From the NCBI GenBank assembly GCA_963840455.1, contig CAWIYV010000011.1, forward strand, positions 672,001 to 736,000: DNA of 64,000 nt, given 5' to 3'. Position numbers and translations under genes: made by a program. This document shows positions 17,152-32,848 of this stretch, piece after piece (the first letter of the stretch is position 1; every line of letters begins with the position of its first letter). This stretch comes from Nitrospirota bacterium. GTDB lineage: Bacteria > Nitrospirota > UBA9217. Under the pieces are notes generated by a model. That model ran no database searches. It saw only the letters and a list, made by a program, of their open reading frames with translations, and had not been told where the DNA came from.

Positions 17152-17176
17152 TGCCAGAAGCGTTCTGTTTTTCGTT

Positions 17177-17351: not shown

Positions 17352-17422
17352 CCGTTCCTTTCCCAAACTGTTCCTGTCGGGAATGCTAATATTGCCCTCC
17401 GCTCGTCTTGGAACGTTGACTC

Positions 17423-17605: not shown

Positions 17606-17731
17606 GATCGATCACTCCTCTCACGATACTTCATTCTCTCCTGACTCAATTTTGGAGAGTTTTTCTGATACGCCCGACAAGCCATTGATTACACCAATCA
17701 CGCGGATTAGATCTGATTGGCGACGTCGGCT

Positions 17732-18811
17732 TCAATTTTTAAAAAGTTTCACGTACTTTCCATAACCATCTTTTACCAGGTCCTCTTTTGGTATGAACCT
17801 GAGAGCCGCCGAGTTCATGCAATAACGCAGGTGCGTCGGCGCCGGGCCGTCATCAAACACGTGGCCGAGGTGCGAGTCGGCTTGTTTGCTCCGCACCTCG
17901 GTCCTGACCGCGAAGTACCATGTCCGGTCCTTCTTTGTAACGATATTGCCGGGCTCGAGCGGCCTGGTGAAGCTCGGCCATCCCGTGCCGGACTCGTATT
18001 TATCGAGAGAGCTGAACAGAGGCTCGCCGGAGACGATATCGACATAGATGCCGGGCTTATGGTTGTCCCAATATGCATTGTTGAAGGCCGGTTCCGTTCC
18101 GTCCTCCTGCGTCACCTTATACTGCATCGGGGTCAGTCTTTTTTTCAGCTCTTCCTTTGACGGTTTCACAAAGGCTCCACTGGCCTCATTGGCCATTGCC
18201 GTATGCATCATTTTCTCTTTCCCCCAGACCTTCTCAAGATACTTGTCACGGCCGCAGCTGGACCTGTAGAACTTGTACCGGATAGGGTTCTTTTTATAAT
18301 AATCCTGATGGTACTCCTCGGCCTTATAGAATGCAGAGGCTTTGATCAGTTCGGTCACAATGGGTTTCTGATACCTACCGGTCTTTTCGAGCGCTTCTTT
18401 CGATTCTTCAGCCAGCCGTTTTTGTTTGGCATTTTCGTAAAATATCGCTGAACGATACTGCGGTCCTCTGTCGCAAAATTGGCCGCCTTGATCCGTCGGG
18501 TCTATTTGACGCCAGAAGACGTCAAGCAATGCCGAATAGCTTATCTTGGAAGGATCATAGGTGATCTGCACCGCTTCTATGTGGCCCTTCTCTGCATAGT
18601 CCTTGTAGGTGGGATCCGGGCTATTGCCGCCTGTATACCCTGATACCACCTCGTTAACACCGTTCAATTTCTCAAAAGGCGGCGTCATGCACCAAAAGCA
18701 CCCGCCCGCAAAGGTTGCTTTTTCAAGATGAGTCATACTGCCTGCATCGGCTTGAGTAGCCATGAGCGGCAGAATCAGCAATGTTCCTATCAACAATAAT
18801 TTCACCAGCAT
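17732..18811 (-). CDS. msrAB: Periplasmic peptide-methionine sulfoxide reductase MsrA-MsrB fusion
   Basis: [15 protein letters not shown] (MsrA); [20 protein letters not shown] (MsrB); signal peptide; SD GAGGA. Confidence 0.95.
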
Positions 18812-19056
18812 GGTCAGTTCCTCGCTTTTTCTGTGATCATTCCAACATATGTTCCGGCCTTTTTCAAAGCGGACTCCATTTCCTTGATTGTAATGGCCTT
18901 CGGGTCCATAACAGACAGTGTCTGTCTCACCGACCCTCCGCATATGCCAGCTATGCATGCTTATTAAAGACAAATTCACTCTTATATTTAATTATAGCAT
19001 TCTTTATGCCAGAATGTTTCTCTGTTATACCGTAGACTCGCTGGGAGCTGTGTTCC

Positions 19057-19150
19057 ATGAGGGCGGCGGAATCGAACCCGCGTGCGAAAGCCATCAAACC
19101 TAAAGCACATACATGTTTATACCCTCGCTTGATGCTCGGCTCCTCCTGCC
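19057..19150 (-). pseudogene. Decayed ~95-bp copy of the tmRNA 3' portion (distal att scar)
   Basis: GGCGGCGGAATCGAACCCGCGTGCGAAAGCCATCAAACCTAAAGCACATACATGTTTATACCCTCG aligns to tmRNA 31281-31372, roughly 80% identical by eye. Confidence 0.85.
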
Positions 19151-19204
19151 TTTCTGTTCATGATAAAAAAGAGGGAATTCCTAATTGGAATCCAGGGCAC
19201 GCAA

Positions 19205-19563
19205 TATAATAGTTTGTCCAATCGCCTGAATTGCTGCCACTATTAGAAATTCGATTTGTAAAACATACCCCAAAAAATACCCCAACTTGTGAACGCTAGA
19301 AAACAAAAAAAGAGCTAATTCCTTTAAGGAGTTAGCCCTGGTCCCCGCCTGTGTTCAATGGAGACTTTCGGAAAAAATCAAAATATCACGATAATGTCAA
19401 ATAGTTATGGTGGAGGCGGCGGGAATTTAATAGCTTGTCCAACCTATTGAAATTCCACGCTTTATTTTCGGCGTTATTTCGACATACCCCGAATTAATAC
19501 CCCTAAAATGCTGGATGTCATAAGCTCTAGATGGACTAATTCGGCCGTTATTGCACATCTAAC
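19205..19563. repeat. att-like direct repeat copy 1 (half-core, ATACCCC pair, terminator, tmRNA 3' core 19407-19427, half-core, ATACCCC pair)
   Basis: Colinear with 25119-25489; contains ATGGTGGAGGCGGCGGGAATT identical to tmRNA 31274-31294. Confidence 0.9.
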
Positions 19564-19672
19564 CTATATATACCTTGCTAAAAAGTGAACGACGCGCGTT
19601 TCGACGGAGCCGGTTCGTACCGCAATGACTACCGATAAGAAACGACGCAGCAACAAACTCAATCTTGACCGC

Positions 19673-20509
19673 TCATCGGCGCGGCAAGGCCGCATCCGGT
19701 GCAGCGTCGCATTGTTCGGCACCTTCCTTGAGCGCAAAGGCTTCGGCGCAGGCGAGTTGCGCAAGCCGTCCTGCTGTATCCTCAAGGGGCTTGAGAGATA
19801 TATCTTCGCCGGAATGTCGCTCGTAGTACCCGAAGGGGTTGTCGAGATCCCTGATCAGCATCAGGAGGTAAATCATCAGGTACGAAATAACTCCCACAAA
19901 GAACAACGACTCGTAAAACGGCTCGATCTTTGCCAATATAAGCCCTATACATAGAAGGATCGTGGTGAGATCCGCGAGCAAATAACCCGAGGCAATAAAA
20001 GACGTTTCCCGAATAGTGTGAACGCGAAGGAGCGTACGTCGGAGATTGCTCTGCTCCTGCTTCAATCGAGCTACCAGAGTCGCCTGAGTCCATTGTTCCA
20101 TCGCCGCGAACTGAGGGGTTAGATCGTTCACGTGCTCCAGCAATTCTGTGGTTCGGTGCTTCTTATGGAACCAGTCCAGAATGTCCCGGCTCAATTGGGA
20201 CAGCAGGAGCAGACAGGCGCCAACACTGGCTTCCGATCGCGTCATCTTGATACCGCGCACTTCTTGCGCCAAATTCTCCAAACATGCGCTCAACTCGCCT
20301 GGAAGGCGCTCGCTCTCCTTGAAATCCGACAGAACGCCGCTCAGAAGAAATCCCATGAGGAAGACATTTGCGGCCACAATCCCCGAGAAGAGCGGATTGA
20401 TGGAGAGGATCTCTGCCCCGAAGAAATGGACAAGGAGTTTTGCGCCTACGACCAGCGCAACCACGGCGCTGACACGAAGCAGAAGACGGTATTTGTTCTG
20501 GATGGTCAT
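19673..20509 (-). CDS. Integral membrane hypothetical protein (possibly bestrophin/DUF4239-like)
   Basis: Four hydrophobic segments, 'GFLLSGVLSDFKESE' and 'IRDLDNPF' motifs; SD GAGGGA before ATG 20509. Confidence 0.7.
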   Translation of the reverse strand: MTIQNKYRLLLRVSAVVALVVGAKLLVHFFGAEILSINPLFSGIVAANVFLMGFLLSGVLSDFKESERLPGELSACLENLAQEVRGIKMTRSEASVGACLLLLSQLSRDILDWFHKKHRTTELLEHVNDLTPQFAAMEQWTQATLVARLKQEQSNLRRTLLRVHTIRETSFIASGYLLADLTTILLCIGLILAKIEPFYESLFFVGVISYLMIYLLMLIRDLDNPFGYYERHSGEDISLKPLEDTAGRLAQLACAEAFALKEGAEQCDAAPDAALPRR

Positions 20510-20516
20510 CGTTCCC

Positions 20517-21503
20517 TCATCTGTCATGGTCATGGTGTTCTTGATGATGCTTCCTGGCGCCATGACCCCAGTGGAAGCCCTTTTCTATAATAACGTGACC
20601 TGCTGCCAAGCCGACTGCGGCCAGGGCAGCAATGAATAATGCAAGCCATTTCCACAACGCCTTCCCTGGGCTAGGGTATCGCCATGCGCTTCTCATCGCA
20701 GTGCGGCCCTTCATAAGGATTTTCCTGGCTGTTTCACTGCATCGGCTAGCGTTTGCCACAGCGGGCCACGGCTCCCGCTTCGATTCTCGACTCTCCTTCA
20801 ACTGCTGATGCGCTTTCTCATCAGCAGGACGGTCATCCCAGTATTTACGAAACCGTCCGAACATACCGCTTGCCTCTTCCTGCTGCATTTCCCGGCACTG
20901 CCGCAGAACAGAACCCCGGCACCAGAGCATGGTTCCGCTCCATTGCGGTAGACCGTTGAGTGCGTCGAGAAACTCCTTTTTGCCCTCCACCTGCTCGTCA
21001 TACTCCCGTGGGCCGATAATGAGCATATTAGACTCGACATTGCAGAGCCCGCTCACGATTCGGTCTAATTCCTCATGCGCCTTCCACTGGATCCGGCCGT
21101 CGGCTGCAATTGTAATTTGATAGCGTCCGACACGGTATGCTCCGGGGTGCGCGAGTTCTGCGTGGGGGAGGACTGCGCGGTTCATCCTGGCAAAGGAGGA
21201 TAACTGCTCCAGCGGCTCGCCGGCTAGTGCCTGACCTGTCGCGCTGTCGAGCAGATCGCCTTCGAAACAATAAAATCGCGTCAGGGTCCAGGGAGGTAAT
21301 TTCCTCAAATGGTCAAGGAACTCGCCGCTCTGGAAGCCGTCTTCATCGTGATACTTTTTTCCAATGATGAGAACGTCTCCGAAGAGAAAGCACTTTCCGC
21401 TGCGCGCCATCGCCAGGGGAACATGCCGCTCCCATTGGACGAGAACAGCATCATACATGGTGATCCGGTAGTTTCCCAGGCGATATGATTTTTCAAGCGT
21501 CAT
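20517..21503 (-). CDS. Hypothetical protein with duplicated ~85-aa domain, C-terminal TM and His-rich tail
   Basis: Internal repeat YR.G.Y.IT...QW..H...SG.C......LIIG...EFLD.L..LP.W; ATGA overlap with kinase. Confidence 0.75.
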
Positions 21504-22957
21504 GTGCTGTTCTCGTCCCCTGTCGGCTCGTTGCTTCCCGGGGACCGGGTGCGGTTCTCAGCGATAGGAATAACCACCGTGAACCTGCTGCCCTTGTCCG
21601 GTTCGCTCTGGACCGTGATCGTTCCGCCGTGAGCCTCGACAACAGACTTGACGATGCTCAACCCCAGTCCGGTGCCGTCCATGCTTCTTACTGTGTCGGC
21701 GCGATAAAAGCGCTCGAAGATTTTCGACCGGTCGCTCTCCCTGATGCCGATCCCCATGTCACTGATGGTGATGACCGCTTTCCCGGCCTCGTGTATCGCG
21801 AAGACGGTGACCGCTCCCTTCTCCCTGTTATATCTCACCGCGTTCTCAATGAGATTCAGAAAAGCCTCGGACAGGGCGATGCGCGATCCCGTAACCAGAA
21901 GCGTTTCATCAATTTCGACGGAGAGGTTGATCTGTCGCTCGTTCGCCTGTTGCGCTGTCATGGTTATTGCGTGGTCGATACACTCCTTGATCGACACCGC
22001 GGCAAAGCCCGAGGTCGAAAGAAGCCCCGCGTCAAGGCGGGCCAGGGAGAGGAGATCGTTAATAAGTCTCGTCATACTCTTTGACGACGACTGGACCGTA
22101 CGAAGTGCGTCGATGTACTCTTCAGGCGTTCTCGCCTTCTGCAGCGCCACATCGCACTGTGTCCTGAGTACCGAGAGTGGAGTTTTGAGTTCATGAGACG
22201 CGTCGGCGATAAGCCGCCTCTGGCTTTCAAACACGGTGTGCAAACGATCGAGCATGGCGTTGAACGCCTGCGCAAGCCGCGCCAGCTCATGATCCATGGC
22301 CCCGGCATTCAGGCGGTCCGCAAGGTTCTTATGGGTGATCGTCTCGATCGTCGTAGACAGGGATTCGATCGGACGGAGCGCCGCCTTTGCGATCCTCCAG
22401 GCTGCCAGGCAAAGGACCAAAATGATCAGAGGAACGGAAACGAGCAAATATCGTTCGAACGTGGAAATCATCGCGATGCCGTCTGTCAGGCTTTCGGCTA
22501 GGGTGATATCGAAGTTCCTGCCGAAGGCCCAATATCGATACCGAAGCACGCGCACCGGTTCATCATCGGGCCCCATTGAGGTGTACATGCTCTCGCCGGG
22601 AGGTCCGTTGACCGTTGCCGCGCCGGCGGGAATAAATTCATAACCATCAGTGACCAGGGATGGTGACGCAGCAAGAACCGCGTTGTCCATCATCACCCGG
22701 TAGTAATGGCCTGATCGCGGAATGACGTACTCACCGGCTATGATGTCCGAAAGCTCGAGTTCAATCCTGCCGTGCTCTTCGTGCAAGAGCCCGGTAACCA
22801 TTTGCCGCTTGGAGTGGAGGGTGCGATCAACGGACCCAACGACGATCCCTCTGACCTCTCTGGAAAGGAAGGCTGCCGCAACGGTTAGGACAATGGCAGT
22901 GCCGAGGAAGAGCCAGGCCACGAGTCTCCCGGATATGGATCGCAGGACAAGTTTCAT
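21500..22957 (-). CDS. HAMP-domain sensor histidine kinase (heavy-metal CusS/CzcS-like class)
   Basis: Two [16 protein letters not shown]-box, N/G1/F/G2 boxes. Confidence 0.92.
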
Positions 22958-23628
22958 GGCTCACCCTTGAGCACGTAGCCCGCGCCGCGCTTCGTATGGA
23001 TGAGAGGCTTTCCGAAGCCCTTGTCGATCTTGTTTCGGAGATAATTGATGTACACGTCGATGACGTTGCTGTCCCACTCGTATTCCGTGGCGTAGACATG
23101 GTCGATCAGCTCGGTCCTGCTCACCACGCGGCCGGCATTGAGCGCAAGATATTCGAGGAGCATATATTCCCGGGCCGAGAGCGGGATAGCTTTGCCTGCC
23201 CGGGTAGCGGTTTTTGCGTTCGTGTCAATGGCAAGATCCTCGACCGCTACGATCGGTGATGGTTTTCCCTTGTTCCTCCTAATCGCCGCGCGCAGGCGGG
23301 CCATTAACTCGGCAAGGTCAAAAGGCTTGGGAATGTAGTCGTCAGCGCCGAAATCGAGTCCCTTGATCCTGTCCTCTATCTCTCCTCGGGCTGTGACAAC
23401 GAGCACCGGCACATCGATCTTTTTTGCGCGCAGGGTCTTCAGGATCGTGAGGCCGTCCTTGCCTGGCAGCATGAGGTCCAGGAGCACGGCGTCGTAGGGA
23501 TAGGACTCGGCCATGTGCAGGCCTTCCTCACCATCAAAGGAGAGGTCCACGGTGAAATCGTTCTCTTCGAGCCCCTTTTTCAGGATGCGCGCTAGCTTTT
23601 GTTCGTCTTCGATAATAAGGATCTTCAT
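22954..23628 (-). CDS. OmpR-family response regulator
   Basis: [21 protein letters not shown], winged-helix RGAGY. Confidence 0.95.
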
Positions 23629-24254
23629 TGTCGTTCTAGAAGCGCTTCCGGCTGGTCGTTCCGCGTGCTTATTGTATCAGAGATGAAGAATATTTTCCTC
23701 CAGATGTGGTTGCCGTGCAGGGCATGCATGATGACCGCGCCGACGTGAAACGACAAGAACACCGGTATAAGCACCATGCCGATCTCGTGCAGCTCCTTGA
23801 CATCATGAACGAGACCCCGAGTTTTTTGCCCCGGTTCCAGGTAGAAAAACAGATAGGCGCCTGTCGCTGCCACGAAAATAAACACCAGAAGACCGAATGT
23901 CTGGACCACACCGGCCAGGCCTTCGTGGGTGCTCCGGTCAGGCATGCGAAACTTCAGCAACCCTGAAATATCCTCAAGTACGAGTTTGATCCGCGCCGCC
24001 GTGAAAGGCATCCATCGCAGAAACTGTACGCTCCGGGGGCCGATGATCCCCGTGATCAGCCTCAGACCGGCAAAGGCCGCAAGACCCATGCCGAGCCAGC
24101 TGTGGACCGTAAATCCCGGGTGCATCATCCTTTTATAATCGTCGGCCATAAGGCCGGTAAGCCACGCTGTAAGGCCAAAGGCCAGGAGACCCAAGTGGAT
24201 GAGGATTGCAACAGGGCCTAGTTTGCTGTTCTTATCATCGATTTGTCTTGACAT
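23625..24254 (-). CDS. Cytochrome b/b6 domain (Ni-hydrogenase cyt b-like) membrane protein
   Basis: Four TM with His ligands (LIH, VHSWLG, ELHE, FHVGAV). Confidence 0.8.
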   Translation of the reverse strand: MSRQIDDKNSKLGPVAILIHLGLLAFGLTAWLTGLMADDYKRMMHPGFTVHSWLGMGLAAFAGLRLITGIIGPRSVQFLRWMPFTAARIKLVLEDISGLLKFRMPDRSTHEGLAGVVQTFGLLVFIFVAATGAYLFFYLEPGQKTRGLVHDVKELHEIGMVLIPVFLSFHVGAVIMHALHGNHIWRKIFFISDTISTRNDQPEALLERQ

Positions 24255-24309
24255 GGCATTCTTCCTCCTGCGTGTAAGACGGTAACCTGCCGCGGTATTA
24301 GCTGCCGAT

Positions 24310-24693
24310 TTATTTAGACCGCTTCACTTCAACCTCGTAGGCCGTAAATGTCTTGCCCGTGGTGTTGCCTTCAACTTCTACGTAGGCCCCGGCCTCTGCT
24401 CTGCCGTGCTTTTCCTTGATCTTCGTAGTTTTAGTCACAGCGACTTCCCTGCCGTTCACGACCCATATGCCGACGAGATCCTGCGGCACCTTTTCGATAA
24501 TTCCATAAATCTTGCTCTCATATTCGCCATGCTCCCGGTACTCACCGTCACGGCGACCTTCATGATCGCTGGCCAAGGCAGCTCCAGCCGCGAAAAACAT
24601 GCTAAGCAACGCCGCGGCCGCAATAAAGCTGGCCTTACGGCATGCCATCGTAATATTCGACTCCTCAACAAAATTCCGAGTATTAGATATCAT
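24310..24693 (-). CDS. Exported DUF5666-like small beta-barrel protein
   Basis: SD AAGGAGG; signal peptide ALA-S; His/Glu linker; G.W.VNG..V.V...T.I....G.YVEVEG pattern. Confidence 0.7.
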   Translation of the reverse strand: MISNTRNFVEESNITMACRKASFIAAAALLSMFFAAGAALASDHEGRRDGEYREHGEYESKIYGIIEKVPQDLVGIWVVNGREVAVTKTTKIKEKHGRAEAGAYVEVEGNTTGKTFTAYEVEVKRSK

Positions 24694-24770
24694 GACATCC
24701 TCCTTTAATTCCGGTGAAATAGAATTCGGTTGTCCAATCCTTTGATGTTGTTGCGATACTATCACAGTGG

Positions 24771-24789
24771 AGATTAAGGGAAGATTAGA
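24771..24789 (-). promoter_or_regulatory. OmpR/PmrA-type direct-repeat box upstream of the DUF5666-cytb-RR-HK operon
   Basis: AGATTAAG / AGATTAGA with 11-bp period; TAGTAT -10 just downstream on the minus strand. Confidence 0.55.
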
Positions 24790-25118
24790 ACATCAAGCGA
24801 TACATTTACTGGTTGATTTTGAACAGTAATGAAACTGGCGGGAACATTCTGATGTTGAACTTGACTAACCGAGACAATTTCGATAAATTCCATCTATCAA
24901 AATCCGAAGAGTTGGATGCAATTAACTCATCGCAGGTTTAAATATTTCCCATTCAATTAATATTAATGTCTCGATCGGCGAAGGTATAGAGGTGTTGACT
25001 TGATAATGAATGTTCTTCTGGATAGGGACATGAGAAACCATAAAGAAGCTGGCAATTCAAGTCCTGAGCAGTGAATTAAACCCGCATCCAAGAAATCCAC
25101 TTATATTAGCTTGCTCCA

Positions 25119-25489
25119 TTTAATAATTCGTCCAATCACTTGTATTACTGTCACTACTTGCAGCGCGATCTATTTCAACATACCCTAAAAACTACCCCAA
25201 CTTGTGAATGCTAGAAAACAAAAAGAGAGCCAAATCCTTTAAGGACTTAGCTCCAGTTCCCATCTGTGTTCGATGGAGTCGATAGAGACTTTCGGAAAAA
25301 ATAAAAATATCACTGCAATATCAAATAGATATGGTGGAGGCGGCGGGAATTGAATAGTTTGTCCAACCGATTGAAATTCCACGCTGAGTATTTTGGCGTT
25401 AAATCGACATACCCCGAATTAATACCCATAAAAAGCTGGATGTCATAAGATCTTGTTGGACTAATCTGGTCCTCGGAGGACATCTATCC
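25119..25489. repeat. att-like direct repeat copy 2 (tmRNA 3' core 25331-25354)
   Basis: ATGGTGGAGGCGGCGGGAATTGAA identical to tmRNA 31274-31297; same architecture as 19205-19563. Confidence 0.9.
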
Positions 25490-25576
25490 TTTTCGGTTTG
25501 CTCTCGTGCAGAGTTTTCGTATTCTTAGCACAGAGCATGATCCTTTGATAAAACATCAATTAGATTACTGATCAGC

Positions 25577-25605
25577 TTGACAGGGGCATATCGTTCGATT
25601 ACTAT
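25577..25605 (+). promoter_or_regulatory. sigma70 promoter
   Basis: TTGACA-17-TACTAT, 25 bp before ATG 25631. Confidence 0.7.
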
Positions 25606-25630
25606 TTAAGCCACAAGGTGAAAGCTCGCC

Positions 25631-25918
25631 ATGAAGATATCATATCTGACACTCATTAATATCTTTCTATTTTGTTTTATTGCAATGGCATGCATTGCAC
25701 ATCCTCTGGAAATGTGCAATGAGACATCCGCGCCTAATTCGTCAGTATGCTCAATCAGTGACACGCTTGAGAATCACGATAATGACTCAGATCAGGATTT
25801 TGAAATTCACACCTATAAGACACGCCCGACACCTGTGCGCAGCGCCGCTATCAACAACTCGATGTTTATGCCAGTATTGGTCAGTTCCATTTTCACTCCT
25901 CCGCAGTTTCTTTCCTGA
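25631..25918 (+). CDS. Small exported Cys/His protein ending in SIFTPP (DUF2946-like leader)
   Basis: Promoter plus AAGGTG SD, hydrophobic N-terminus, Pro-Pro tail. Confidence 0.55.
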   Translation: MKISYLTLINIFLFCFIAMACIAHPLEMCNETSAPNSSVCSISDTLENHDNDSDQDFEIHTYKTRPTPVRSAAINNSMFMPVLVSSIFTPPQFLS

Positions 25919-26096
25919 TAATAATCCAGCCTCGTTTGCTATCAACGTGACACGTTTTTCGTTACGGTGAACGCCGCATTATCGTAATACAGGAATCGCG
26001 CGATCGGTGCGTGGAGAAAGGGCTCTCCTTTGACGAGTTGTTGAGCGAATACAATCCGATCGCACCTATATTGAGAATCGTCAGGAGGTTATTGCC

Positions 26097-26372
26097 ATGA
26101 AATGCCCTATATGTACATCCATTGATCTTGTTATGACCGACAGGCAGGGTGTGGAAATCGACTACTGTCCTACATGCCGGGGTGTCTGGCTGGATCGAGG
26201 CGAACTGGACAAAATAATCGAACGGTCGTACAGCCAGGTAGCACCGGCTGCTCCGGTCACCCAGCACGATGCGCGTACGATTAAGAATGAGACCGACCAT
26301 CATCATGAGGATGAGCACCATAGCGGGGGCCACAAGAGACGCAAATCATGGATGGGCGAGCTGTTTGATTAG
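26097..26372 (+). CDS. zf-TFIIB zinc-ribbon protein with His-rich C-terminus
   Basis: MKCPIC...GVEIDYCPTCRGVWLDRGELDKII, ..ELFD end; SD AGGAGG. Confidence 0.9.
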   Translation: MKCPICTSIDLVMTDRQGVEIDYCPTCRGVWLDRGELDKIIERSYSQVAPAAPVTQHDARTIKNETDHHHEDEHHSGGHKRRKSWMGELFD

Positions 26373-26383
26373 CAGTATCAGGC

Positions 26384-26411
26384 ATGAGGATGGAGACATC
26401 TCCATCCTCAT
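26384..26411. terminator. Perfect 13-bp hairpin between zf-TFIIB and DHC genes
   Basis: ATGAGGATGGAGA-CA-TCTCCATCCTCAT; no long U-tract. Confidence 0.5.
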
Positions 26412-26462
26412 ATTGACTTAACAGTCTTTCGTTCAACGCGCTTTGAGAGGAGGTCCACCAAC

Positions 26463-26960
26463 ATGAATAAAAGGCTTATTGGCCTGCTGATAGTCATGTC
26501 GATGGTTCCATTGCTTATGGCACTGGATAATCACGGCGAAAGCGAATCACTTTTAAAGGTCACGAATAACACCTATAAAAATACCTGTGGGTCCTGTCAT
26601 ATGGCATATCAAGCGGGTCTATTGCCTGAGCGATCTTGGTTGAAAATACTTAATTCCGGCGGCCACGTCGGAGGTGATGTTTCTCTTAATCGGGAAGCAA
26701 AGGCTGAAATAGAGAAATATCTCGTTCAAAACAGTGCGGATAAAATTCCGTCAAAAAGATCGCAAAAAGTATTGGCTTCGATCGGCAATAATGCTCCCAC
26801 AAGAATTTCGGAAATCCCCTATATCAAGAAGAAGCACCGTGATATCAGCGAAGATATTTTCGCTAGAAAGACCATAAGATCTCGGGCTAAATGCAGCGCA
26901 TGTCATAAGCGTGCAGATAGCGGCATATATGATGAAGAAGATGTGATAATTCCCAAGTAG
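26463..26960 (+). CDS. Diheme cytochrome c (DHC family)
   Basis: CGSCHMAY..GLLP.RSW, RISE.PY..KKH, CSACH; signal peptide; SD GAGGAGG. Confidence 0.88.
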   Translation: MNKRLIGLLIVMSMVPLLMALDNHGESESLLKVTNNTYKNTCGSCHMAYQAGLLPERSWLKILNSGGHVGGDVSLNREAKAEIEKYLVQNSADKIPSKRSQKVLASIGNNAPTRISEIPYIKKKHRDISEDIFARKTIRSRAKCSACHKRADSGIYDEEDVIIPK

Positions 26961-26980
26961 CCAAAGGAGGTCCTACAATT

Positions 26981-27544
26981 ATGGGATTCGGCAAGAAAAT
27001 AGTATACCGCGCGTGTGAACTGTCGCGTGACAACCCACGCCGGATGAAGAAAATCATCCTTTATGCCGGTGTGATATTATTGTGTTGTATCATGGTTGCA
27101 GGTCTTCTGATTTATTCTGCGATCAGCGGCTTGAAAAGCCTCGCTGCGTCATCGCCCGATCTTGACCTGCTTGCATTGCAGGAGCTTCTCAAAAATAAGG
27201 GGTTGATTCTTAGTGAGACGCAAAAGACGCAGATTATACCCCTTGTACAGAGAATGTCGCGGGAAACAGCGCTGGCCGACCGGGCAGCCTTGAAGAAACA
27301 GCTCGTTGGACTTCTAGATCCCATCCAGATTCAGAAGATGGATGAGTGGAAAACCGAGGTCACCAAAAAGGCTGGGGAATTTACCTCAACCCCGCATTAT
27401 ATCGTTTCCGTTATAGAACGCTATACCGGCATCTCGGTGAAGCCATTGAAGGGATGGATTGATGCGTTATTCTCGTGGTGGAAAATAACAAAACCAGAGA
27501 ATAACGCGCAAGGACTCAACGAGGCTTTAAAGAAGAAGGAGTAA
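26981..27544 (+). CDS. Hypothetical membrane-anchored protein
   Basis: SD AAGGAGG, single TM, helical body. Confidence 0.7.
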   Translation: MGFGKKIVYRACELSRDNPRRMKKIILYAGVILLCCIMVAGLLIYSAISGLKSLAASSPDLDLLALQELLKNKGLILSETQKTQIIPLVQRMSRETALADRAALKKQLVGLLDPIQIQKMDEWKTEVTKKAGEFTSTPHYIVSVIERYTGISVKPLKGWIDALFSWWKITKPENNAQGLNEALKKKE

Positions 27545-27566
27545 CACTAGTCCGCCGGACAATGCG

Positions 27567-30128
27567 ATGAAGATTGACACTGAAATAAAGAAATATATCG
27601 GCCTCACCACCCATGACGCCTCACGGATACTGGCGGAGGAAGGCCCGAACGAACTGCCTTCAGCAAAGCCGCGCAGCATTTGGAAGATTGCTTTTGAAAT
27701 CATGAGAGAGCCGATGTTTCTTCTGTTGGTTGCGTGCGGCATCGTCTATCTGGTCATCGGCGACCGCGAGGAAGCGTTGATGCTGATCGCCTTCGTGTTC
27801 TTTGTCATGGGCATTACGCTTTATCAGCAACGCAAAACTGAGCGGGCGCTCGAAGCGCTGCGCGATCTTTCGAGCCCTCGTGCAGCGGTCGTCCGCGACG
27901 GCTCCCGTCTGCGCATACCTGGCCGCGAGGTCGTTCGAGGAGATATCATCTTTCTGGCGGAAGGCGACCGGGTTCCCGCAGATGCCGTTGTGCTCGAATG
28001 CTCGAATCTGACCCTCGACGAGTCGCTTCTTACCGGCGAATCCGTAGCGGTCAGAAAAAGAGCCGGTACCCCGTCCGCGCCCTCTTCGCGGCCTGGCGGC
28101 GATGATCTGCCGCATGTGTTCTCCGGAACGCTCGTGGTTCAAGGCCAGGGCATAGCTCAGGTATCTGCAACAGGCGCCAGGAGTGCCATCGGCACAATCG
28201 GCACGCAACTTCAAACGGTAACCGATGAGGAGACGCTGCTCCAACGGGAGACAGGGAAACTTGTCCGAATCCTTGCGCTGGCTGTATCCGGACTATGTCT
28301 TCTGCTCTTCGTGATCCATGTGATCATACGCGGAGCCTGGCTTGACGGCATCTTGAGCAGCTTAACGCTTGCCATGGCGGTTATGCCGAACGAACTGCCG
28401 GTTGTTCTTACTATTTTTCTCGCGCTCGGCGCCTGGCGCTTGTCCCTCCAGAGGGTGCTGACGAGAAACGCTCCGGTCATAGAAACGCTGGGCTCGGCCA
28501 CGGTGTTGTGCGTGGACAAAACCGGCACACTTACCGTTAATCAAATGTCGGTCGGTATGTTATATTCGGGTGGTTCATTTCATAATGTTCAGGACTACAC
28601 CTGCGGTCCGCCGCCTGATAAATTCCATGATCTTGCTGAATTCGGCATTCTTGCCAGCCAGCGCGACCCGTTCGATCCTATGGAGAGGGCCATCAAAAAG
28701 TTCGGCGAAGAGTATCTGGCCCGTACAGAACACCTTCATGGAGACTGGCGATTGGAGCGGTCATATCCTCTCTCGCCTGAGCTTCTGGCCATGTCTCACG
28801 TTTGGCGATCACTCGACGGCAGTGACTACGTCATCGCGGCCAAAGGGGCTCCGGAGGCTGTCGCCGATCTGTGCCATTTCAGTACGGAACAGCTGTCAGC
28901 GTTGAATCAGACAGTGATGAAGATGGCCGATCAGGGTCTGCGTGTGCTGGGCGTCGCCCGCTCCCGCTTCAAGGAGGAAAGCCTCCCCGGACAGCAGCAT
29001 GATTTTACCTTTGAATTTCTCGGGCTCATAGGCCTCATTGATCCGGTGCGTCCTACGGTGGCAGCGGCACTTCAGGATTGTTATCGGGCAGGCATGAGAA
29101 TGATCATGATCACCGGGGACTACCCCGGAACAGCGCGCAACATAGCACGTCAGATAGGGCTCAAGAACCACGAGACCGTGATCACCGGGCCGGAGCTGGA
29201 TGCGCTCAGCAACGAGGAACTGAGCCGCCGAATCACCGACGTGGACATATTTGCCCGGGTCGTGCCAGAACAAAAACTCCGCCTCGTGACCGCGCTCAAA
29301 GCCAACGGCGAGATAGTGGCGATGACCGGCGACGGGGTGAATGATGCACCTGCGCTCAAAGCTGCCCATATCGGCATCTCCATGGGTGAAAGAGGCACTG
29401 ATGTGGCCCGTGAGGCATCCGATCTTGTCCTGCTTGATGATGATTTCGCCTCCATCGTCCGCTCTGTCAAAATGGGCAGAAGGATCTTTGACAACCTGAA
29501 GAAAGCAATGGCCTACCTCCTGGCTATCCACATCCCAATCGCCGGAATGTCACTGCTTCCGGTGCTTTTCAAATGGCCGCTGCTGTTCATGCCAATTCAC
29601 ATTGCATTCCTGCACCTGATTATCGATCCGGCATGTTCCGTCGTGTACGAGGTGGAGCCTCCCGAGGACGGCGTTATGAACAGAAAACCGCGCTCTCCTA
29701 ACGAACCGCTATTCAATCGGCAGGTTCTCCTGCTCAGCACCCTCCAGGGAATCGGCGTACTGATGATCTTATTCGTTGTTTACGGAGTTACACTCGTCAG
29801 GGGGCAGGGTGAATTGGAAGCGAGGACACTTGCCTTCACCACGCTTATCATCGCCAATCTCGGACTGATGTTGACGAACCGTTCCTGGACCGCGTCAATA
29901 TTCCAGATGATCAGAAAACCGAATGCCGCACTCTGGTGGGTGACGGCTGGCGCACTGCTGTTCCTCTGGCTCACCGTGGCGGTTCCTGCTGTCCGCAGTG
30001 TTTTTCGCTTTTCAGTGCTTCACAGCCTAGACGTTTTCATATGTATTATAGCCGGATGCATAAGTATTCTTTGGTTTGAGCTGTTTAAGCGCATCAGAAG
30101 CGGCAAGGCAATTCGTTTGCAGACTTGA
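27567..30128 (+). CDS. Cation-translocating P-type ATPase (type IIA-like)
   Basis: DESLLTGES, DKTGT, KGAPE, MITGD, TGDGVNDAPAL. Confidence 0.95.
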   Translation: MKIDTEIKKYIGLTTHDASRILAEEGPNELPSAKPRSIWKIAFEIMREPMFLLLVACGIVYLVIGDREEALMLIAFVFFVMGITLYQQRKTERALEALRDLSSPRAAVVRDGSRLRIPGREVVRGDIIFLAEGDRVPADAVVLECSNLTLDESLLTGESVAVRKRAGTPSAPSSRPGGDDLPHVFSGTLVVQGQGIAQVSATGARSAIGTIGTQLQTVTDEETLLQRETGKLVRILALAVSGLCLLLFVIHVIIRGAWLDGILSSLTLAMAVMPNELPVVLTIFLALGAWRLSLQRVLTRNAPVIETLGSATVLCVDKTGTLTVNQMSVGMLYSGGSFHNVQDYTCGPPPDKFHDLAEFGILASQRDPFDPMERAIKKFGEEYLARTEHLHGDWRLERSYPLSPELLAMSHVWRSLDGSDYVIAAKGAPEAVADLCHFSTEQLSALNQTVMKMADQGLRVLGVARSRFKEESLPGQQHDFTFEFLGLIGLIDPVRPTVAAALQDCYRAGMRMIMITGDYPGTARNIARQIGLKNHETVITGPELDALSNEELSRRITDVDIFARVVPEQKLRLVTALKANGEIVAMTGDGVNDAPALKAAHIGISMGERGTDVAREASDLVLLDDDFASIVRSVKMGRRIFDNLKKAMAYLLAIHIPIAGMSLLPVLFKWPLLFMPIHIAFLHLIIDPACSVVYEVEPPEDGVMNRKPRSPNEPLFNRQVLLLSTLQGIGVLMILFVVYGVTLVRGQGELEARTLAFTTLIIANLGLMLTNRSWTASIFQMIRKPNAALWWVTAGALLFLWLTVAVPAVRSVFRFSVLHSLDVFICIIAGCISILWFELFKRIRSGKAIRLQT

Positions 30129-30159
30129 GATGTTGACTGGCCATTCAATACGTCAATTC

Positions 30160-31062
30160 CTATTTCCGCAGGCTTGTATCTCCACGCCTGCAAACCAGCA
30201 CCGAGCAGTCGGCATGGCCAAGGATATTCCGGGCTACGCTTCCGAGCATACCGCTGAAACCGCGCATACCCCGGCTGCCGAGAGCGATGATTTGCGCCCG
30301 CGTTTCCCGCGCCGCCTGGAGTATCTGGTCCGCCGGATCTCCGTTTCTGATTAGCACCGCCGTGTTCCTGAACTTCTCCCGCAACCGAGTTCGTGCCTGG
30401 TCGAGGACTTTTTCGGCGTGAGCCGTCTCCGCCAGCCTCATACCTTCAGCGATCTTGTTAAGCCGTTCGTCCATCCCCGGATAGAACCGTTCGGGAATAT
30501 CCATATACGTTGAAGGCGAGACATACACAGCGGTGAGGCTCGTTTCAGGATAAAATGGTATCAGGGATAATACTTTTTCTGTTTCCTCAGCGCAGGCCGA
30601 ACCGTCTGTGGGAAAGAGCACGTTGAGTGGCCCGTCCTGTTTACCCTGGAACGGCTTGATGACGAGGACGGATTGCTCTGAGTTGATCACCACGGCCCGC
30701 GTCACGCTCCCGAGAAAAAATGAACCGACCGCCTTCATGCCCCGGTTGCCCATGACGATGATATCTGAGGCGGACCTCCTGCCCGCTGCAAGAATTGCAT
30801 CGGCCGGATGGCCCCTGGTCACTAAGGTGGAGACGTACGCCCCGAGGTCTTTCAATAGTCCGGCGGTCTCGTCTACAATCATAGGCGCCAGTTCCTCGCC
30901 GAGCTGCATCAAGGCCTTTAGGTAAGACCCACTGCTGTGGGGAACGTTAGGTATGACGTACAGCACTGTGATCTCATCGGCCTGCGAGAACTTGAACCGC
31001 CCAAGAAAACGGGCCGCGCTATCGGAGTATTTCGAACCGTCTGTGGCAAACAGTATTTTCAT
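30160..31062 (-). CDS. Tandem-domain universal stress protein
   Basis: Two USP domains (ATDGS / PTDGS, G.RG...LGSV); SD AAGGAGG. Confidence 0.9.
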   Translation of the reverse strand: MKILFATDGSKYSDSAARFLGRFKFSQADEITVLYVIPNVPHSSGSYLKALMQLGEELAPMIVDETAGLLKDLGAYVSTLVTRGHPADAILAAGRRSASDIIVMGNRGMKAVGSFFLGSVTRAVVINSEQSVLVIKPFQGKQDGPLNVLFPTDGSACAEETEKVLSLIPFYPETSLTAVYVSPSTYMDIPERFYPGMDERLNKIAEGMRLAETAHAEKVLDQARTRLREKFRNTAVLIRNGDPADQILQAARETRAQIIALGSRGMRGFSGMLGSVARNILGHADCSVLVCRRGDTSLRK

Positions 31063-31164
31063 CGGTCGCCTCCTTGTTATACCAAACCTGCCCGTTCCCA
31101 CCTTTTATCAGTATAGCAGTATAGAAAACCCAGATTCCCGAAAAATGCCCTTCATGCTAATGTT

Positions 31165-31198
31165 AAAAAAAGAGCTAATTCCTAATAGGAATTAGCTC
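31165..31198 (-). terminator. tmRNA intrinsic terminator (island-supplied)
   Basis: GAGCTAATTCC-TATTA-GGAATTAGCTC-TTTTTTT on minus; homologous hairpins at ~19305-19337, ~25221-25253, ~19165-19193. Confidence 0.8.
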
Positions 31199-31274
31199 AA
31201 ATTCGCGAAAGTCTATAGGGTGGCAGGCTTGCCTAAAGACAAAAAATATCCATTAGAATCAATGACTTATTAAA

Positions 31275-31624
31275 TGGTGGAGGCGGCGGGAATTGAACCC
31301 GCGTCCGAAAACCTTCAACCGAAAGCTCATACATGCTTATCCCCTCGTTTACAGCTCTCGCTTCCTCCGGCGCCTCAGGGAAAGCTCCGGGATCAGCCAG
31401 CCCGGTAGTTCTTATCGCTCCGCCCCGGACATAGCGAAGAGACCAGCCCGAATTGTGACATCTCTTCAGCCGCTCAGGCGGCAGCCGGGAGACGCGCTAC
31501 TTAGTTAAGCAGCGTATGCCAGTTCGTTATTGGCAGTTCTATTTTGCCATGTGTTTTACGAGCCCCATGGCACCTCGGCATGCAACTCCCGATCTCTCGA
31601 TCCCCGTCGAAGCCAGTCGCCCCC
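31275..31624 (-). ncRNA. ssrA: tmRNA (SsrA), tag peptide ANNELAYAA (31505-31534)
   Basis: 5' GGGGGCGACTGGCTTCGACGGGG, 3' GGGTTCAATTCCCGCCGCCTCCACCA, resume ORF GCC AAT AAC GAA CTG GCA TAC GCT GCT TAA. Confidence 0.97.
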
Positions 31625-31735: not shown

Positions 31736-31764
31736 ATAATAACCTATTGCTTGGCTGTATTCAA
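31736..31764 (-). promoter_or_regulatory. Putative sigma70 promoter for ssrA
   Basis: TTGAAT-17-TATTAT on minus. Confidence 0.55.
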
Positions 31765-32058
31765 TAGCCGAATGACATCTTCCTCGCTCTTTCCGCTGAT
31801 CTTCACGCGTTTTTCCCGGGAGGTGTGGCCGGAGAGGATCTCGATCTGCGATTTGCTGACAGAGAGGGTGTCGGAAAGAAACGTAACCAGGGCCTCGTTG
31901 GCGGCGCCATCAACGGGCGGCGCCGTCAGCCTGATCTTGAGGGAGCCGTCCTGCATGCGGGAGATGCCGTTCTTCGAGGCACGGGGCTGGATCCGGACGC
32001 TGAGGGTGGCGCTGATCTCAGTCTGCTTTTGCTTCCGGCTGCTCGGCCGTGCTTTCAC
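31744..32058 (-). CDS. DUF167/YggU family protein
   Basis: VRIQPRAS, LKIRLTAPPVDGAAN, SGHTSREK. Confidence 0.9.
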   Translation of the reverse strand: MKARPSSRKQKQTEISATLSVRIQPRASKNGISRMQDGSLKIRLTAPPVDGAANEALVTFLSDTLSVSKSQIEILSGHTSREKRVKISGKSEEDVIRLLNTAKQ

Positions 32059-32506
32059 TGCCCGCCTCCTCGAAGCTCACCATTTCCTGGTGCATCTGGA
32101 GCATCTTCCGCATGTCCTGCAGGAAGTGGTGCTTCTGGCGCCGCAGCTCGATCAGCTCCGATTCCAGGCGGAGCCGCTCCTCCCGGGCGCGCTCGAGGGT
32201 CTGCTGATACTTGATCTCGGCATCTTTCACCATGAGCTGCGCCTCCTTCCGGGCGTTCTCACGGATGTCCTCGGCCAGCTTGTGCGTCGTGATCATGGTG
32301 CTCTTGAGTGTGTCCTCCCGGTCCCGGTAGTCCCGCATGCGCTCGTCATAGGTGTCGCGGAATTCGCGAAGCTCGGTCACCTCGCGTACGAGGCCCTCCA
32401 TCTCTTCGCGCACCACGTCGAGGAACGCCTCGACCTCGGTGCGTTCGAAGCCGCGGAAGGCGATGTGGAACCGTTTCTGCTGGATATCGAGTGGTGTTAC
32501 CTTCAT
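32018..32506 (-). CDS. divIVA: DivIVA domain coiled-coil protein
   Basis: TPLDIQQKRF...FRGF...EV..FL N-terminus. Confidence 0.9.
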   Translation of the reverse strand: MKVTPLDIQQKRFHIAFRGFERTEVEAFLDVVREEMEGLVREVTELREFRDTYDERMRDYRDREDTLKSTMITTHKLAEDIRENARKEAQLMVKDAEIKYQQTLERAREERLRLESELIELRRQKHHFLQDMRKMLQMHQEMVSFEEAGSESTAEQPEAKAD

Positions 32507-32524
32507 GGCACGTTCTCCCTTTCC

Positions 32525-32824: not shown

Positions 32825-32848
32825 TGTTCCTCCCTTGATAGACCACAA

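Follow-up and report, generated by a model that had tools for sequence, protein, structure and literature searches.

How did copies of the 3' end of a tmRNA gene come to lie between blocks of unrelated genes, in DNA that encodes no integrase? The window analysed here (64,000 nucleotides of contig C11, from the 14-contig assembly of the genome under study, G000) carries the tmRNA gene, ssrA, on the minus strand at 31275-31624 (ARAGORN; Rfam RF00023, 200 bits; tag ANNELAYAA). Its last 24 nt, counted with position 31274, form the att core. We found three occurrences of this 24-mer, ATGGTGGAGGCGGCGGGAATTGAA, in the window when up to 3 mismatches are allowed, against 0.00 expected by chance (100 shuffles): at 31274-31297 in the gene itself, as an exact plus-strand copy at 25331-25354, and as a plus-strand copy of the acceptor strand, T stem and T loop at 19407-19430, whose single mismatch lies in the T loop. 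The core-to-core spacings are 5924 and 5943 bp. The original prediction had pointed to the same recurrence, and the interval it gave for the third copy, 19407-19427, is the exact 21-nt portion of the full span; it was also right that identity to the tmRNA stops within the T-loop 7-mer, as the junction alignments confirm.

The cores sit in direct repeats (19262-19565 and 25177-25490) that are 82-90% identical in three blocks and that reach the predicted length of ~360 bp once a 28-nt box at 19203 and 25117 is counted. At the outer junction, a terminator-like hairpin followed by a T run (19175-19193, minus strand; hairpin scan, block H) precedes the distal part of a left (P') arm (19203-19300, plus strand; repeat family D4, with block 'a_oldP' common to 5 junctions), which resembles the start of a right arm in carrying the 28-nt box and then CATACCCC-N5-ATACCCC. 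A copy of the tmRNA terminator hairpin (19305-19336, minus strand; family D5, block T) comes next, and beyond the core, opposite the hairpin side, lies the right (P-type) arm of module A (19431-19565, plus strand), a conserved stretch of ~135 nt in which TAGCTTGTCCAA, ACATACCCC-N6-ATACCCC, GCTGGATGTC and TGGACTAATTCGG follow in that order. The inner junction joins the left arm of module A (25117-25330, plus strand; 28-nt box, ATACCC repeats, terminator at 25220-25254 and spacer) to the right arm of module B (25355-25490, plus strand; 82-90% identical to that of module A), and this left arm matches, at 78-82% identity, the DNA that immediately follows the true tmRNA gene in two relatives, G002 and G005. 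The working gene's own terminator, at 31165-31198 on the minus strand (repeat comparison and hairpin scan), would on the standard model come from the left arm of module B; the segment 31165-31274 shares 85% identity with sequence lying downstream of a core copy in another relative (G003:C426). A terminator-hairpin homologue had been predicted at each core copy, and three are present (19305-19336, 25220-25251 and 31165-31196; 88% identity), two of them detected by the hairpin scan on the minus strand.

The consensus junction is the same in 52 distinct junctions, and the right arm is conserved across all of them. Among junctions the T-loop 7-mer is variable (AATT[G/T/C][A/T]A) and the acceptor portion is conserved; judged by these alignments, the crossover position is the T loop of the tmRNA. 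Direct repeats are present on the arms at 8 array junctions, and the words ATACCCC and GTTACCCC are putative arm-type binding sites of an integrase. The proposal that the repeats mark att-type junctions between islands, stacked at ssrA by T-loop crossover, is supported. Because the arms diverge by 10-30% between junctions, the insertions are not recent. A further trace of tmRNA sequence, absent from the original account, is a diverged fragment of the 3' region of ~100 nt at 19060-19156 on the minus strand (nhmmer E 1.4e-8; blastn 84% over 70 nt; Rfam tmRNA 14.5 bits, E 0.01), which is 84% identical to the tmRNA 3' end of G003. It appears to be an older scar, for which simple T-loop integration does not account. 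At the equivalent position of the next junction, 25065-25100 (minus strand), alignment by eye, without statistical support, places a degenerate T-arm remnant.

The window holds only the end of a longer array, whose extension past the left edge had gone unnoticed. We found that the junction recurs at least nine times on C11, with core copies (at most 4 mismatches) at 618818, 621400, 648600, 656348, 660772, 666399, 691407, 697331 and 703274, all on one strand. One further copy lies at the end of contig C5, and none was found elsewhere in the 4.03-Mb genome at the same threshold; a genome search with the 391-nt repeat gave 13 matches. Seven of the eight displaced C11 cores have a terminator-type hairpin before the core, at about -105 to -70, and seven of the eight precede a right arm; at 648600 only the first ~27 nt match. 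The array spans at least 85 kb and possibly ~116 kb (C11, about 587/618.8 kb to 703.3 kb). The near-equal spacing that had been noticed in the window is real, but the other junctions lie 2.6, 27.2, 7.7, 4.4, 5.6 and 25.0 kb apart, so the equality is a coincidence and not a property of the system. Nor does the description "modules of about 6 kb" hold, as actual sizes run from 1.8 to 27 kb. Contig C5, which terminates in a junction, matches C11:581.6-586.9 kb as a variant of 96-99% identity, a pattern that points to probable strain polymorphism in the co-assembly.

Modules A and B have no genes in common. Module A (cargo 19673-24765, minus strand, 91% coding; Pfam) encodes a pair of unknown proteins (296 and 328 aa), a cytochrome b561, a DUF5666 protein, and a sensor kinase with a response regulator of the heavy-metal type (TIGR01386 and TIGR01387 of NCBIfam, each scoring under its cut-off). 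Module B (cargo 25631-31101, 92% coding; Pfam, NCBIfam) carries two small unknown ORFs, a dihaem cytochrome c, an unknown 187-aa protein, a type II cation P-type ATPase (853 aa) and a tandem universal stress protein (Usp). The next module, of ~25 kb (C11:666423-691059), has its far junction outside the window at C11:666399 and its ssrA-proximal part at 1-19059 (Pfam); it contributes a DegP-like protease, M16 and S41 peptidases, Slp, a GH15 glucoamylase, MFS, VirJ, MprF and MsrAB. The cargo of the array is of the stress and metal type, and no conjugation or mobilisation genes were seen in the modules. The idea that the modules carry promoters was not borne out: 11 promoter-like sites were counted where 11.0 are expected, and none lies inside the repeat.

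At the DNA level, modules A and B are absent from all five same-genus genomes, in which the side upstream of ssrA is syntenic; the 12 kb is therefore not one fixed block. A Cus-type RND module with a junction is also present in G003 (94-98% amino acid identity), in a different neighbourhood. The same junction type occurs in 12 other genomes of the family and on 46 metagenome contigs.

A scan of 12 ORFs and six-frame searches alike turned up no integrase, transposase or phage family, in agreement with the original prediction. No tyrosine or serine recombinase was found within the array, HMMs of two integrase families matched nothing in C11:581-704 kb, and no module across ~123 kb of array contained an integrase or a remnant of one, such as the pseudogene in each module that had been named as contrary evidence. 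Genome-wide, the only full-length PF00589 matches are an XerC/D-like pair on C1 and C9, with a similar-scoring pair in all five relatives searched; PF00239 and PF07508 gave 0 matches, and the remaining recombinases in the genome are pseudogenes and fragments. Fragments of a P4-type integrase family persist at C14:532928-533158, adjoining tRNA-Ala(cgc) and a pair of ATACCCC repeats, and at two sites on C11 (311.5 and 359.4 kb). Within C11:302.7-311.8 kb, 9 kb separate a right arm from an integrase fragment, the two being oriented as expected of one island, which suggests that right-arm islands formerly had their own integrase. Since G000 has no intact candidate, an integrase could at present act in trans only if an element brought one in.

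The P4-type integrase is present in 19 of 63 other genomes of the family, with its architecture confirmed as an arm-binding domain (Arm-DNA-bind_3, PF13356), a central Phage_int_M and a catalytic domain. Of 16 loci examined, 5 lie at tRNA-Glu, 6 at tRNA-Ala(cgc), 1 at tRNA-Met and 3 at tmRNA genes, and 1 is without a tRNA. The three tmRNA-linked copies, 93-275 nt downstream of the tmRNA, are intact in G011 (93 nt from the tmRNA end), interrupted by one stop codon in G058 and a fragment in G013; in G011, the DNA downstream of a single tmRNA gene continues in two alternative ways, one of which includes the integrase. Some relatives have ATACCCC or GTTACCCC repeats just upstream of the integrase: GTTACCCC occurs three times at the tmRNA-linked integrases of G011 and G058, and ATACCC-type pairs lie between tRNA and integrase at 3 of 12 tRNA-linked loci (G002, G019:C75 and G023). 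Thus, a P4-family tyrosine integrase associated with GGGGTAT-type repeats, as had been predicted, does exist in relatives, directly downstream of tmRNA and tRNA genes. Metagenome contig L100 shows the order right arm, core, P' arm, integrase, the last being 87-90% identical to that of G011, and contig L069 carries integrase fragments.

From these results, we conclude that the locus is probably the product of ordinary tandem accretion of ssrA islands by site-specific recombination, whose members are now integrase-less modules resembling CIMEs. The interval 19057-31297 is best read as the two ssrA-nearest members of a tandem islet array that starts at the tmRNA gene, and its two ~6-kb blocks as the newest members of a long chain of foreign gene blocks. 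Each islet would have arrived through site-specific recombination of its own att site with the tmRNA T loop, bringing a new 24-nt tmRNA 3' end and terminator (the P' or left arm), while the older 3' end would have been displaced outward and left as a direct repeat fused to the incomer's ~135-nt P (right) arm. Repeated rounds would give the order tmRNA, module B, junction, module A, junction, 25-kb module, junction, and onward; the order of the insertion events is read from this arrangement. The recombinase would be a P4-type tyrosine integrase of the family found in relatives just downstream of tmRNA and tRNA genes, which presumably made these particular junctions and whose members in this genome would all have been lost or fragmented. 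The modules are best regarded as immobile unless an outside integrase arrives, in which case they might be mobilised in trans. Several observations count against accretion, among them the tmRNA fragment at 19060-19156 and the primase-helicase islet described below. The distal limit of the array is not firmly placed. Integrase remnants turned up on only 2 of 47 junction-bearing contigs (46 metagenome contigs and one MAG locus), fewer than would be expected had each module brought an integrase with it. The integrases of G011, G058 and L100 come with GTTACCCC repeats and a different terminator, without the ATACCCC left arm of most G000 junctions, so that the exact cognate enzyme for ATACCCC-type ssrA arms was not found. 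Finally, no core repeat lies within 32 kb downstream of the integrase in G058 or on the 12.4-kb G011 contig C61, so that no island was seen complete, with an integrase of its own and a right arm to close its far end.

The scarcity of integrase remnants is what an alternative would predict, in which the modules were non-autonomous from the start: cassettes of P arm, core and P' arm, inserted at and excised from ssrA by a P4-type integrase that another island or a phage supplies in trans, in an integron-like or satellite-like system. The integrase-free ~123 kb of G000 is consistent with such cassettes, as is the lack of an integrase between tmRNA and distal junction in G062 (24 kb), G071 (9.4 kb), G057 (5.4 + 4.2 kb) and G007 (3.9 kb). 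So are the smallest cassettes between junctions, 1.8-1.9 kb on contigs L076 and L071, the constancy of the ~135-nt arm on modules with unrelated cargo, and the L100 right-arm module that directly adjoins an integrase-bearing island. An islet of 3.9-4.2 kb without integrase, encoding an 800-aa primase-helicase and flanked by left and right arms beside ssrA in several genera, is 80-89% identical across genera, whereas the four housekeeping proteins adjoining it are 58-74% identical; this conservation would fit movement without an integrase of its own. We nevertheless consider a system of this kind unlikely. No excision product, empty site or circle was seen, and assembled contigs from public runs gave no reliable joint; G000 has no intact integrase able to act in trans, and the ssrA integrases have GTTACCCC where the modules have ATACCCC. 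The right arm and integrase fragment at C11:302.7-311.8 kb and the age implied by arm divergence also argue against it, and CIMEs and accretion already cover the concept.

Exchange of modules by homologous recombination after DNA uptake, with the tmRNA gene and arms as portable homology and site-specific recombination needed for the first event only, is very improbable. It would draw on the arms present at every junction, on a tmRNA that is 97% identical among G000, G001, G002 and G005, and on the tmRNA of G003, which is only 80% identical to that of G000 while neighbouring proteins are 84-98% identical, suggesting a gene replaced by foreign DNA. However, arms of ~135-230 nt that are 70-90% alike are a poor substrate, identity breaks off precisely in the T loop at all junctions, a signature of site-specific recombination, and a matching integrase family adjoins the tmRNA in relatives. 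Misassembly, a collapsed repeat or segmental duplication of one 6-kb block, to which the 14 contigs, the break of C5 just past a junction and the two similar spacings might point, is scarcely credible for repeats that are not identical, modules that differ in gene content and a junction type that recurs in relatives and metagenomes.

Tandem accretion of ssrA islands can be set beside several known systems. In integrons, small or promoter-less cargo units gather at one site through a tyrosine recombinase encoded outside the cassettes. The array here differs in having no adjoining intI, attI or Pc, its head being the tmRNA gene where an integron has intI, attI and a promoter, and in its multi-gene modules of up to 27 kb in both orientations. 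An attC-like arm was considered and rejected, as RNAalifold on 47 arms (plus strand only) gave -0.08 kcal/mol, 4 pairs and no covariation. An Xer-dependent integrative element (IMEX) likewise found no support: with an E. coli dif motif as the probe, a weak test, the junction has no XerD-arm match at up to 4/12 mismatches, and the genome's dif-like site is on C7.

The arm repeats at 8 junctions and the PF13356 integrases of relatives may point to a P4-type (heterobivalent) att site, although the repeat word is ATACCCC at the junctions and GTTACCCC at the tmRNA-linked integrases. Islands at tRNA and tmRNA genes with P4-type integrases are reportedly the subject of Williams' "Traffic at the tmRNA gene", and CP4-57 is said to be one. 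As in islands of the Islander type, the target gene is split and regenerated, a displaced 3' fragment marks the far end, the crossover is in the T loop, and the integrase, here in relatives, is an immediate neighbour of the tRNA or tmRNA gene. We found an intact target gene with its displaced 3' end as a direct repeat, and modules A and B are missing from this site in all five same-genus genomes. The Islander definition requires an integrase inside the island (PMC4383910); the 12 kb and C11:581-704 kb yielded none, and one is present in G011, G058 and contig L100. Prochlorococcus tycheposons, as described by Hackl et al. (bioRxiv 10.1101/2020.12.28.424599), are similar in lying at tRNA and tmRNA genes, with successive insertions displacing older ones outward, scattered partial tRNAs, fragmented integrases and adaptive nutrient or stress cargo. 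They have their own tyrosine recombinase, with excision shown by PCR, whereas the array here is without a recombinase and is known from sequence alone.

The Dehalococcoides ssrA islands described by McMurdie et al. (2011, PMC3146451) are alike in that several are arrayed in tandem in the ~100 kb downstream of ssrA and that some lack an integration module. Their number differs between strains, and the authors suggest that those without the module are cis-mobilizable elements or fixed relics. They differ in phylum, in cargo (reductive dehalogenases as opposed to metal and stress genes) and in enzyme, a CcrB-like serine recombinase (DsiB) in a six-gene module of 16 islands as opposed to the P4-type tyrosine integrase of relatives here. 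Integrase-less tandem ssrA islands are thus already published, as is accretion of CIMEs (Guedon et al. 2017, PMC5704250), and the "integron-like" character put forward for this locus is not a novelty. CIMEs are described there as keeping attL and attR without integration or transfer genes, in tandem at the 3' end of a target gene, and their cis-mobilisation by a neighbouring ICE was experimentally shown. Judged by sequence, modules A and B are likewise bounded on each side by a core with P and P' arms and have no integration or transfer genes, and integrase fragments occur in comparable arrays (L069, L100 and G013), though not in G000 modules. CIMEs are defined as descendants of ICEs or IMEs, whereas here we infer descent from integrase-bearing islands. 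The three steps proposed for their origin, integration, decay and new integration at the regenerated site (PMC5704250), agree with the anatomy of the modules. Island stacking behind a tmRNA gene is therefore already known, and the array here seems to be a case in which all genes for the inserting enzyme have been lost.

We found that the last 24 nt of the tmRNA gene (31275-31624, minus strand; ARAGORN; Rfam RF00023, 200 bits), which read ATGGTGGAGGCGGCGGGAATTGAA on the + strand, occur three times in the window: exactly at 31274-31297 and 25331-25354, and with 1 mismatch at 19407-19430. The chance expectation for such copies was 0.00 in 100 shuffles. The flanks of the two displaced copies of this core are 82-90% identical (19262-19565 versus 25177-25490), and the repeat reaches ~360 bp once a 28-nt box further left is included. 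A homologue of the tmRNA terminator hairpin follows each core copy ~70-105 nt downstream in the sense of the tmRNA, and likeness to the tmRNA body ends within the T-loop 7-mer. The original prediction had described the repeats in these terms, and each of these features was confirmed. What it had missed is a ~100-nt stretch at 19060-19156 that matches the tmRNA 3' region in diverged form (nhmmer E 1.4e-8; Rfam 14.5 bits) and is 84% identical both to the tmRNA of the source genome, G000, and to the variant tmRNA of G003, its closest relative. This fragment sits downstream of a complete junction and is not accounted for by simple T-loop integration. A much weaker tmRNA echo, seen by eye only, lies near 25065-25100; the only Rfam matches in 18900-25700 were this weak tmRNA fragment of 19060-19156 and a snoRNA hit attributable to chance. 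A promoter scan showed no enrichment of promoters within the repeat.

The window holds only the end of a larger structure. When the whole 4.03-Mb assembly was searched for the 24-mer at up to 4 mismatches, copies were found on one strand of contig C11 at 618818, 621400, 648600, 656348, 660772, 666399, 691407, 697331 and 703274, the last being the real tmRNA gene; the small contig C5 has one further copy at its end. At C11:597640 and C11:302727, weaker copies of the arm alone are present. Successive cores on C11 are 2.6, 27.2, 7.7, 4.4, 5.6, 25.0, 5.9 and 5.9 kb apart; the near-equal spacing of ~5.9 kb is thus a coincidence and not a property of the system. Similarly, window positions 1-19059 (MsrAB, MprF, VirJ and others), previously read as chromosomal flank, belong to a 25-kb module. 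The array may start near 587 kb of C11. Contig C5 (7677 nt) is a 96-99% identical variant of C11:581595-586865 with a 2-kb indel; it runs into a core-plus-right-arm junction, and the main path has no junction at that place, indicating that the co-assembled strains differ from one another at the array's distal end. The protein encoded at C11:594910-595731 has a close homologue in G003 only.

Seven of the eight displaced copies on C11 follow a common plan, which in tmRNA sense consists of a right (P) arm of ~135 nt, the 24-nt core, a spacer of ~65 nt and a terminator hairpin. At 648600 the plan is broken: the terminator is another one, and the right arm is kept for its first ~27 nt only. At five junctions a further ~100 nt follow, in which the start of the right arm is repeated. 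This arm contains, in order, TAGTTTGTCCAA, GATATTCC, ACATACCCC-N6-ATACCCC, GCTGGATGTC and TTGGACTAAT; as RNA, it yielded no consensus fold and no Rfam family. The T-loop 7-mer differs among junctions (AATTGAA, AATTTAA, AATTCTA) and the acceptor-stem part is conserved, which is the pattern expected if strand exchange occurs in the T loop. As far as nucleotide comparison can tell, this layout is that of tandem integration: each junction would comprise the P arm of the nearer island, the core, and the terminator-bearing left (P') arm of the farther island, and each incoming island would supply a new tmRNA end and terminator.

The two blocks nearest ssrA differ completely in content. Besides two unknown proteins, module A (19.6-25.1 kb) codes for cytochrome b561, a DUF5666 protein, and a sensor kinase of the heavy-metal type with a response regulator. 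Module B (25.5-31.1 kb) has genes for a dihaem cytochrome c, a type II cation P-type ATPase, a tandem universal stress protein (Usp) and one unknown protein, as well as two small unknown ORFs. Because they share no gene, duplication is ruled out. Both modules are 91-92% coding, which leaves no space for a sizeable pseudogene, and unfiltered six-frame HMM searches gave no integrase signal (best E 2.9). The claim that these 12 kb lack an integrase holds. Across the array, we surveyed ~55 of ~85 ORFs, setting aside giant ORFs of 1715 and 3077 aa. The cargo includes arsenic functions (two ArsP permeases, an Acr3-type carrier, a methyltransferase), exporters (a MacB-type ABC exporter, a Cus-type and an Acr-type RND pump), stress and proteolytic functions (KatG with a Fur-family regulator, DegP and further peptidases), and a Kelch/Ig protein, AsmA, ExbBD with TPR proteins, a porin and a molybdate carrier.

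Comparison with other genomes of the family indicated that the cargo is variable. The upstream side of ssrA (a 373-aa protein, ProC, YggS and others) is syntenic in G001, G002, G003, G005, G007, G011 and G020, and the downstream sides are all different. The 373-aa ORF (31751-32872, + strand), which lies directly upstream of the tmRNA gene and has no Pfam match, is kept beside ssrA in all relatives examined (39-84% aa identity). Modules A and B were found in none of the five same-genus genomes, so the 12 kb is not one block fixed among relatives; the 25-kb module had only paralogue-level matches there. G003 contains the Cus-type module with its junction at 94-98% aa identity and a KatG module at 91%, in a different arrangement, and G019, from another genus, has the ExbBD/TPR module (55-76% aa identity) adjoining the same core and arm. 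Overall, 13 of 64 family genomes, belonging to 6 of 19 genera, have the core-plus-arm junction, with 10 copies in G000 and 1-2 in each other genome. It was also found on 46 metagenome contigs; by eye, a recognisable tmRNA end precedes 49 of 51 pattern matches. The shortest cassettes, on metagenome contigs L076 and L071, measure 1.8-1.9 kb. Viral contigs gave no match to either search pattern. In public Logan assembled contigs, the best run contained 0.24 of the sampled words; short contigs from 4 runs partly covered module B at 90-99% identity, and module A had no cover, although cover this thin does not amount to absence. The single joint seen in these contigs, 19260 to 25177, has a 26-nt side, lies inside the repeats and is unreliable.

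Two further observations concern the ssrA locus itself. The G003 tmRNA (C122:764-1114) is ~80% identical to that of G000, the adjacent proteins being 84-98% identical, and foreign sequence seems to have taken the place of the G003 gene or of its 3' part. Genes past the distal junction in G062 and G071 match G000 contig C10:231-236 kb (up to 88% aa identity) and not C11, and the ancestral ssrA neighbourhood thus appears to have been rearranged in the genus of G000. The 54-kb tmRNA-to-junction interval of G056, which contains genes 89-91% identical to G000 C10 genes, was not counted as an island.

What enzyme could have built the array? A six-frame search with PF00589 detected only two full-length tyrosine recombinases in G000, on C1 and C9; since a pair with similar scores occurs in all five relatives searched, these enzymes are XerC/D-like. 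The same search picked up a few short fragments, none of them on C11. Xer/dif mimicry at the junction was considered, and no match was found. Serine recombinases (PF00239, PF07508) had no match in G000 and were absent from the ssrA-to-junction intervals of G062, G071, G057 and G007. In a second, large tyrosine recombinase family (~440-480 aa), G000 has broken copies, frameshifted and partly deleted, at C7:124556-126346 and C4:217286-217471; intact members occur in multiple copies near contig ends in same-genus relatives. We set this family aside as the array enzyme, as no tRNA, core, arm or ATACCCC pair lies nearby.

Tracing the ATACCCC repeat through relatives led instead to an intact integrase in G002, ~40 nt past the repeat and 117 nt past a tRNA-Glu. 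The integrase family to which it belongs is P4-type in domain architecture (Arm-DNA-bind_3, Phage_int_M and catalytic domain) and was found in 19 of 63 other family genomes. We examined 16 of the 21 P4-type loci listed, leaving out four short fragments and one 31%-identical match. In all 15 that have a tRNA or tmRNA, the integrase lies directly downstream of it in the same orientation: tRNA-Glu(ctc) at 5 loci, tRNA-Ala(cgc) at 6, tRNA-Met at 1 and tmRNA at 3; the stretch around the remaining locus has no tRNA. The tmRNA-linked integrases are intact in G011 (on contig C61, 411 aa as read, 93 nt from the tmRNA end), interrupted by one internal stop in G058 (147 nt; tag peptide as in G000) and a fragment in G013 (275 nt). 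The P4-family integrase predicted to lie beside GGGGTAT-type repeats exists in relatives, just past a tmRNA or tRNA gene. Within G000, this family is represented by scraps and no intact gene. One, at C14:532928-533158, lies 100 nt from tRNA-Ala(cgc) and 18 nt from an ATACCCC pair; the site (C14:532752-533194) comprises the tRNA, a ~75-aa integrase C-terminal remnant with two stops and ATACCCC-N4-ATACCCC, and is occupied by intact integrases in six other family genomes. Other scraps lie at C11:311549-311761 and C11:359406-359549, with none in C11:581-704 kb. The first of these is ~9 kb from an isolated right arm with a decayed core (C11:302727-302892), 400 kb from ssrA. The pair is oriented as expected for one island, no tRNA was found there, and it may represent a decayed or translocated island.

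Evidence for integrase-bearing islands at ssrA itself came from G011, in which the final 102 nt of the integrase contig are identical to tmRNA on another contig with a different continuation. The two continuations suggest that one sample contained cells with and without the integrase island; contigs C22, C28 and C61 of G011 could not be joined into one path. In addition, metagenome contig L100 carries, in order, a right arm, a core, a P' arm of the ssrA-linked integrase type and a frameshift-split integrase 87-90% identical to that of G011, and L069 carries two integrase fragments. These contigs indicate that integrase-bearing islands and right-arm modules coexist in the same arrays.

The reading with the best support is ordinary tandem accretion, in which P4-type integrases stacked islands at ssrA and their genes were afterwards lost, leaving att-flanked cargo modules. 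Tandem accretion at ssrA is a process already known, of which this array is an unusually long, clean and integrase-free example. The original prediction, in which an integrase acting in trans stacked non-autonomous modules at ssrA, is partly supported: its observation was confirmed and extended, and it is possible that many modules do ride on an integrase supplied in trans. Consistent with that idea, integrase remnants are scarce (none in ~123 kb of the G000 array and in only 2 of 47 junction contigs), and the arm is conserved regardless of cargo. Also in its favour is an integrase-less, 4-kb islet found between left and right arms beside ssrA in several genera and complete in G007. It encodes an 800-aa protein in which an AEP-TOTE primase domain is combined with an SF2 helicase, and has PIN or Gp49/HigB-like toxin genes alongside, at G007:C18 40789-43191, G002:C12 100879-103278 and L045:4017-6413, and on L039, L087, L076 and L096. 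The gene is absent from G000 and adjoins the right arm of the ssrA junction wherever the contig reaches far enough; its product is 80-89% identical across genera, versus 58-74% for neighbouring housekeeping proteins. The islet may function in defence or as a replicative satellite; a literature search on the term 'TOTE' for the primase domain returned nothing. Set against transport in trans, the ssrA integrases found so far use the arm word GTTACCCC, three copies of which follow the terminator in their P' arms, whereas most G000 junctions carry ATACCCC. Moreover, assembled public contigs showed no excision product, and G000 holds nothing able to act in trans today. A complete island with both integrase and right arm was not seen in the material examined.

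A stronger version of that idea would make ssrA in this family the site of a genuine cassette system. Its modules (1.8-27 kb) would lack an integrase and would all bear the same ~135-nt P arm, together with a P' arm containing a terminator; a P4-type ssrA integrase, housed on another island of transient presence, would insert, excise and reshuffle them in trans. The widespread 4-kb primase-helicase/toxin-antitoxin islet would count as the most successful satellite of this kind, and the 10-junction array of G000 would be what the system produced before its driver was lost. Taken jointly, we regard these propositions as a tentative and rather doubtful picture. An integron is rejected: there is no intI, no attI and no conserved fold in the arm.

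The locus makes up ~3% of G000, as foreign DNA that accumulated stepwise at one site, and brought in genes for the handling of arsenic and metals, RND efflux, catalase, envelope proteases, MprF, MsrAB, a P-type ATPase and two-component sensors. The array is also a lead to a possible trans-mobilised cassette system: if the modules are movable in trans, the conserved arm and a G011-type integrase would offer a compact natural means of adding cargo, unit upon unit, to a single-copy gene found universally. Stacked elements with remnants are described for Prochlorococcus islands (10.1101/2020.12.28.424599), and the accretion model, with its cis-mobilizable elements (CIMEs), has been reviewed (PMC5704250). 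Dehalococcoides presents the same picture: PMC3146451 describes tandem ssrA islands, some without an integration module and termed possible cis-mobilizable elements. The two systems share tandem ssrA islands with integrase-less members but differ in their enzymes, a serine integrase there and, judging from the relatives, a P4-type tyrosine integrase here. The array thereby carries this pattern beyond Dehalococcoides into a lineage with tyrosine integrases of the P4 type.
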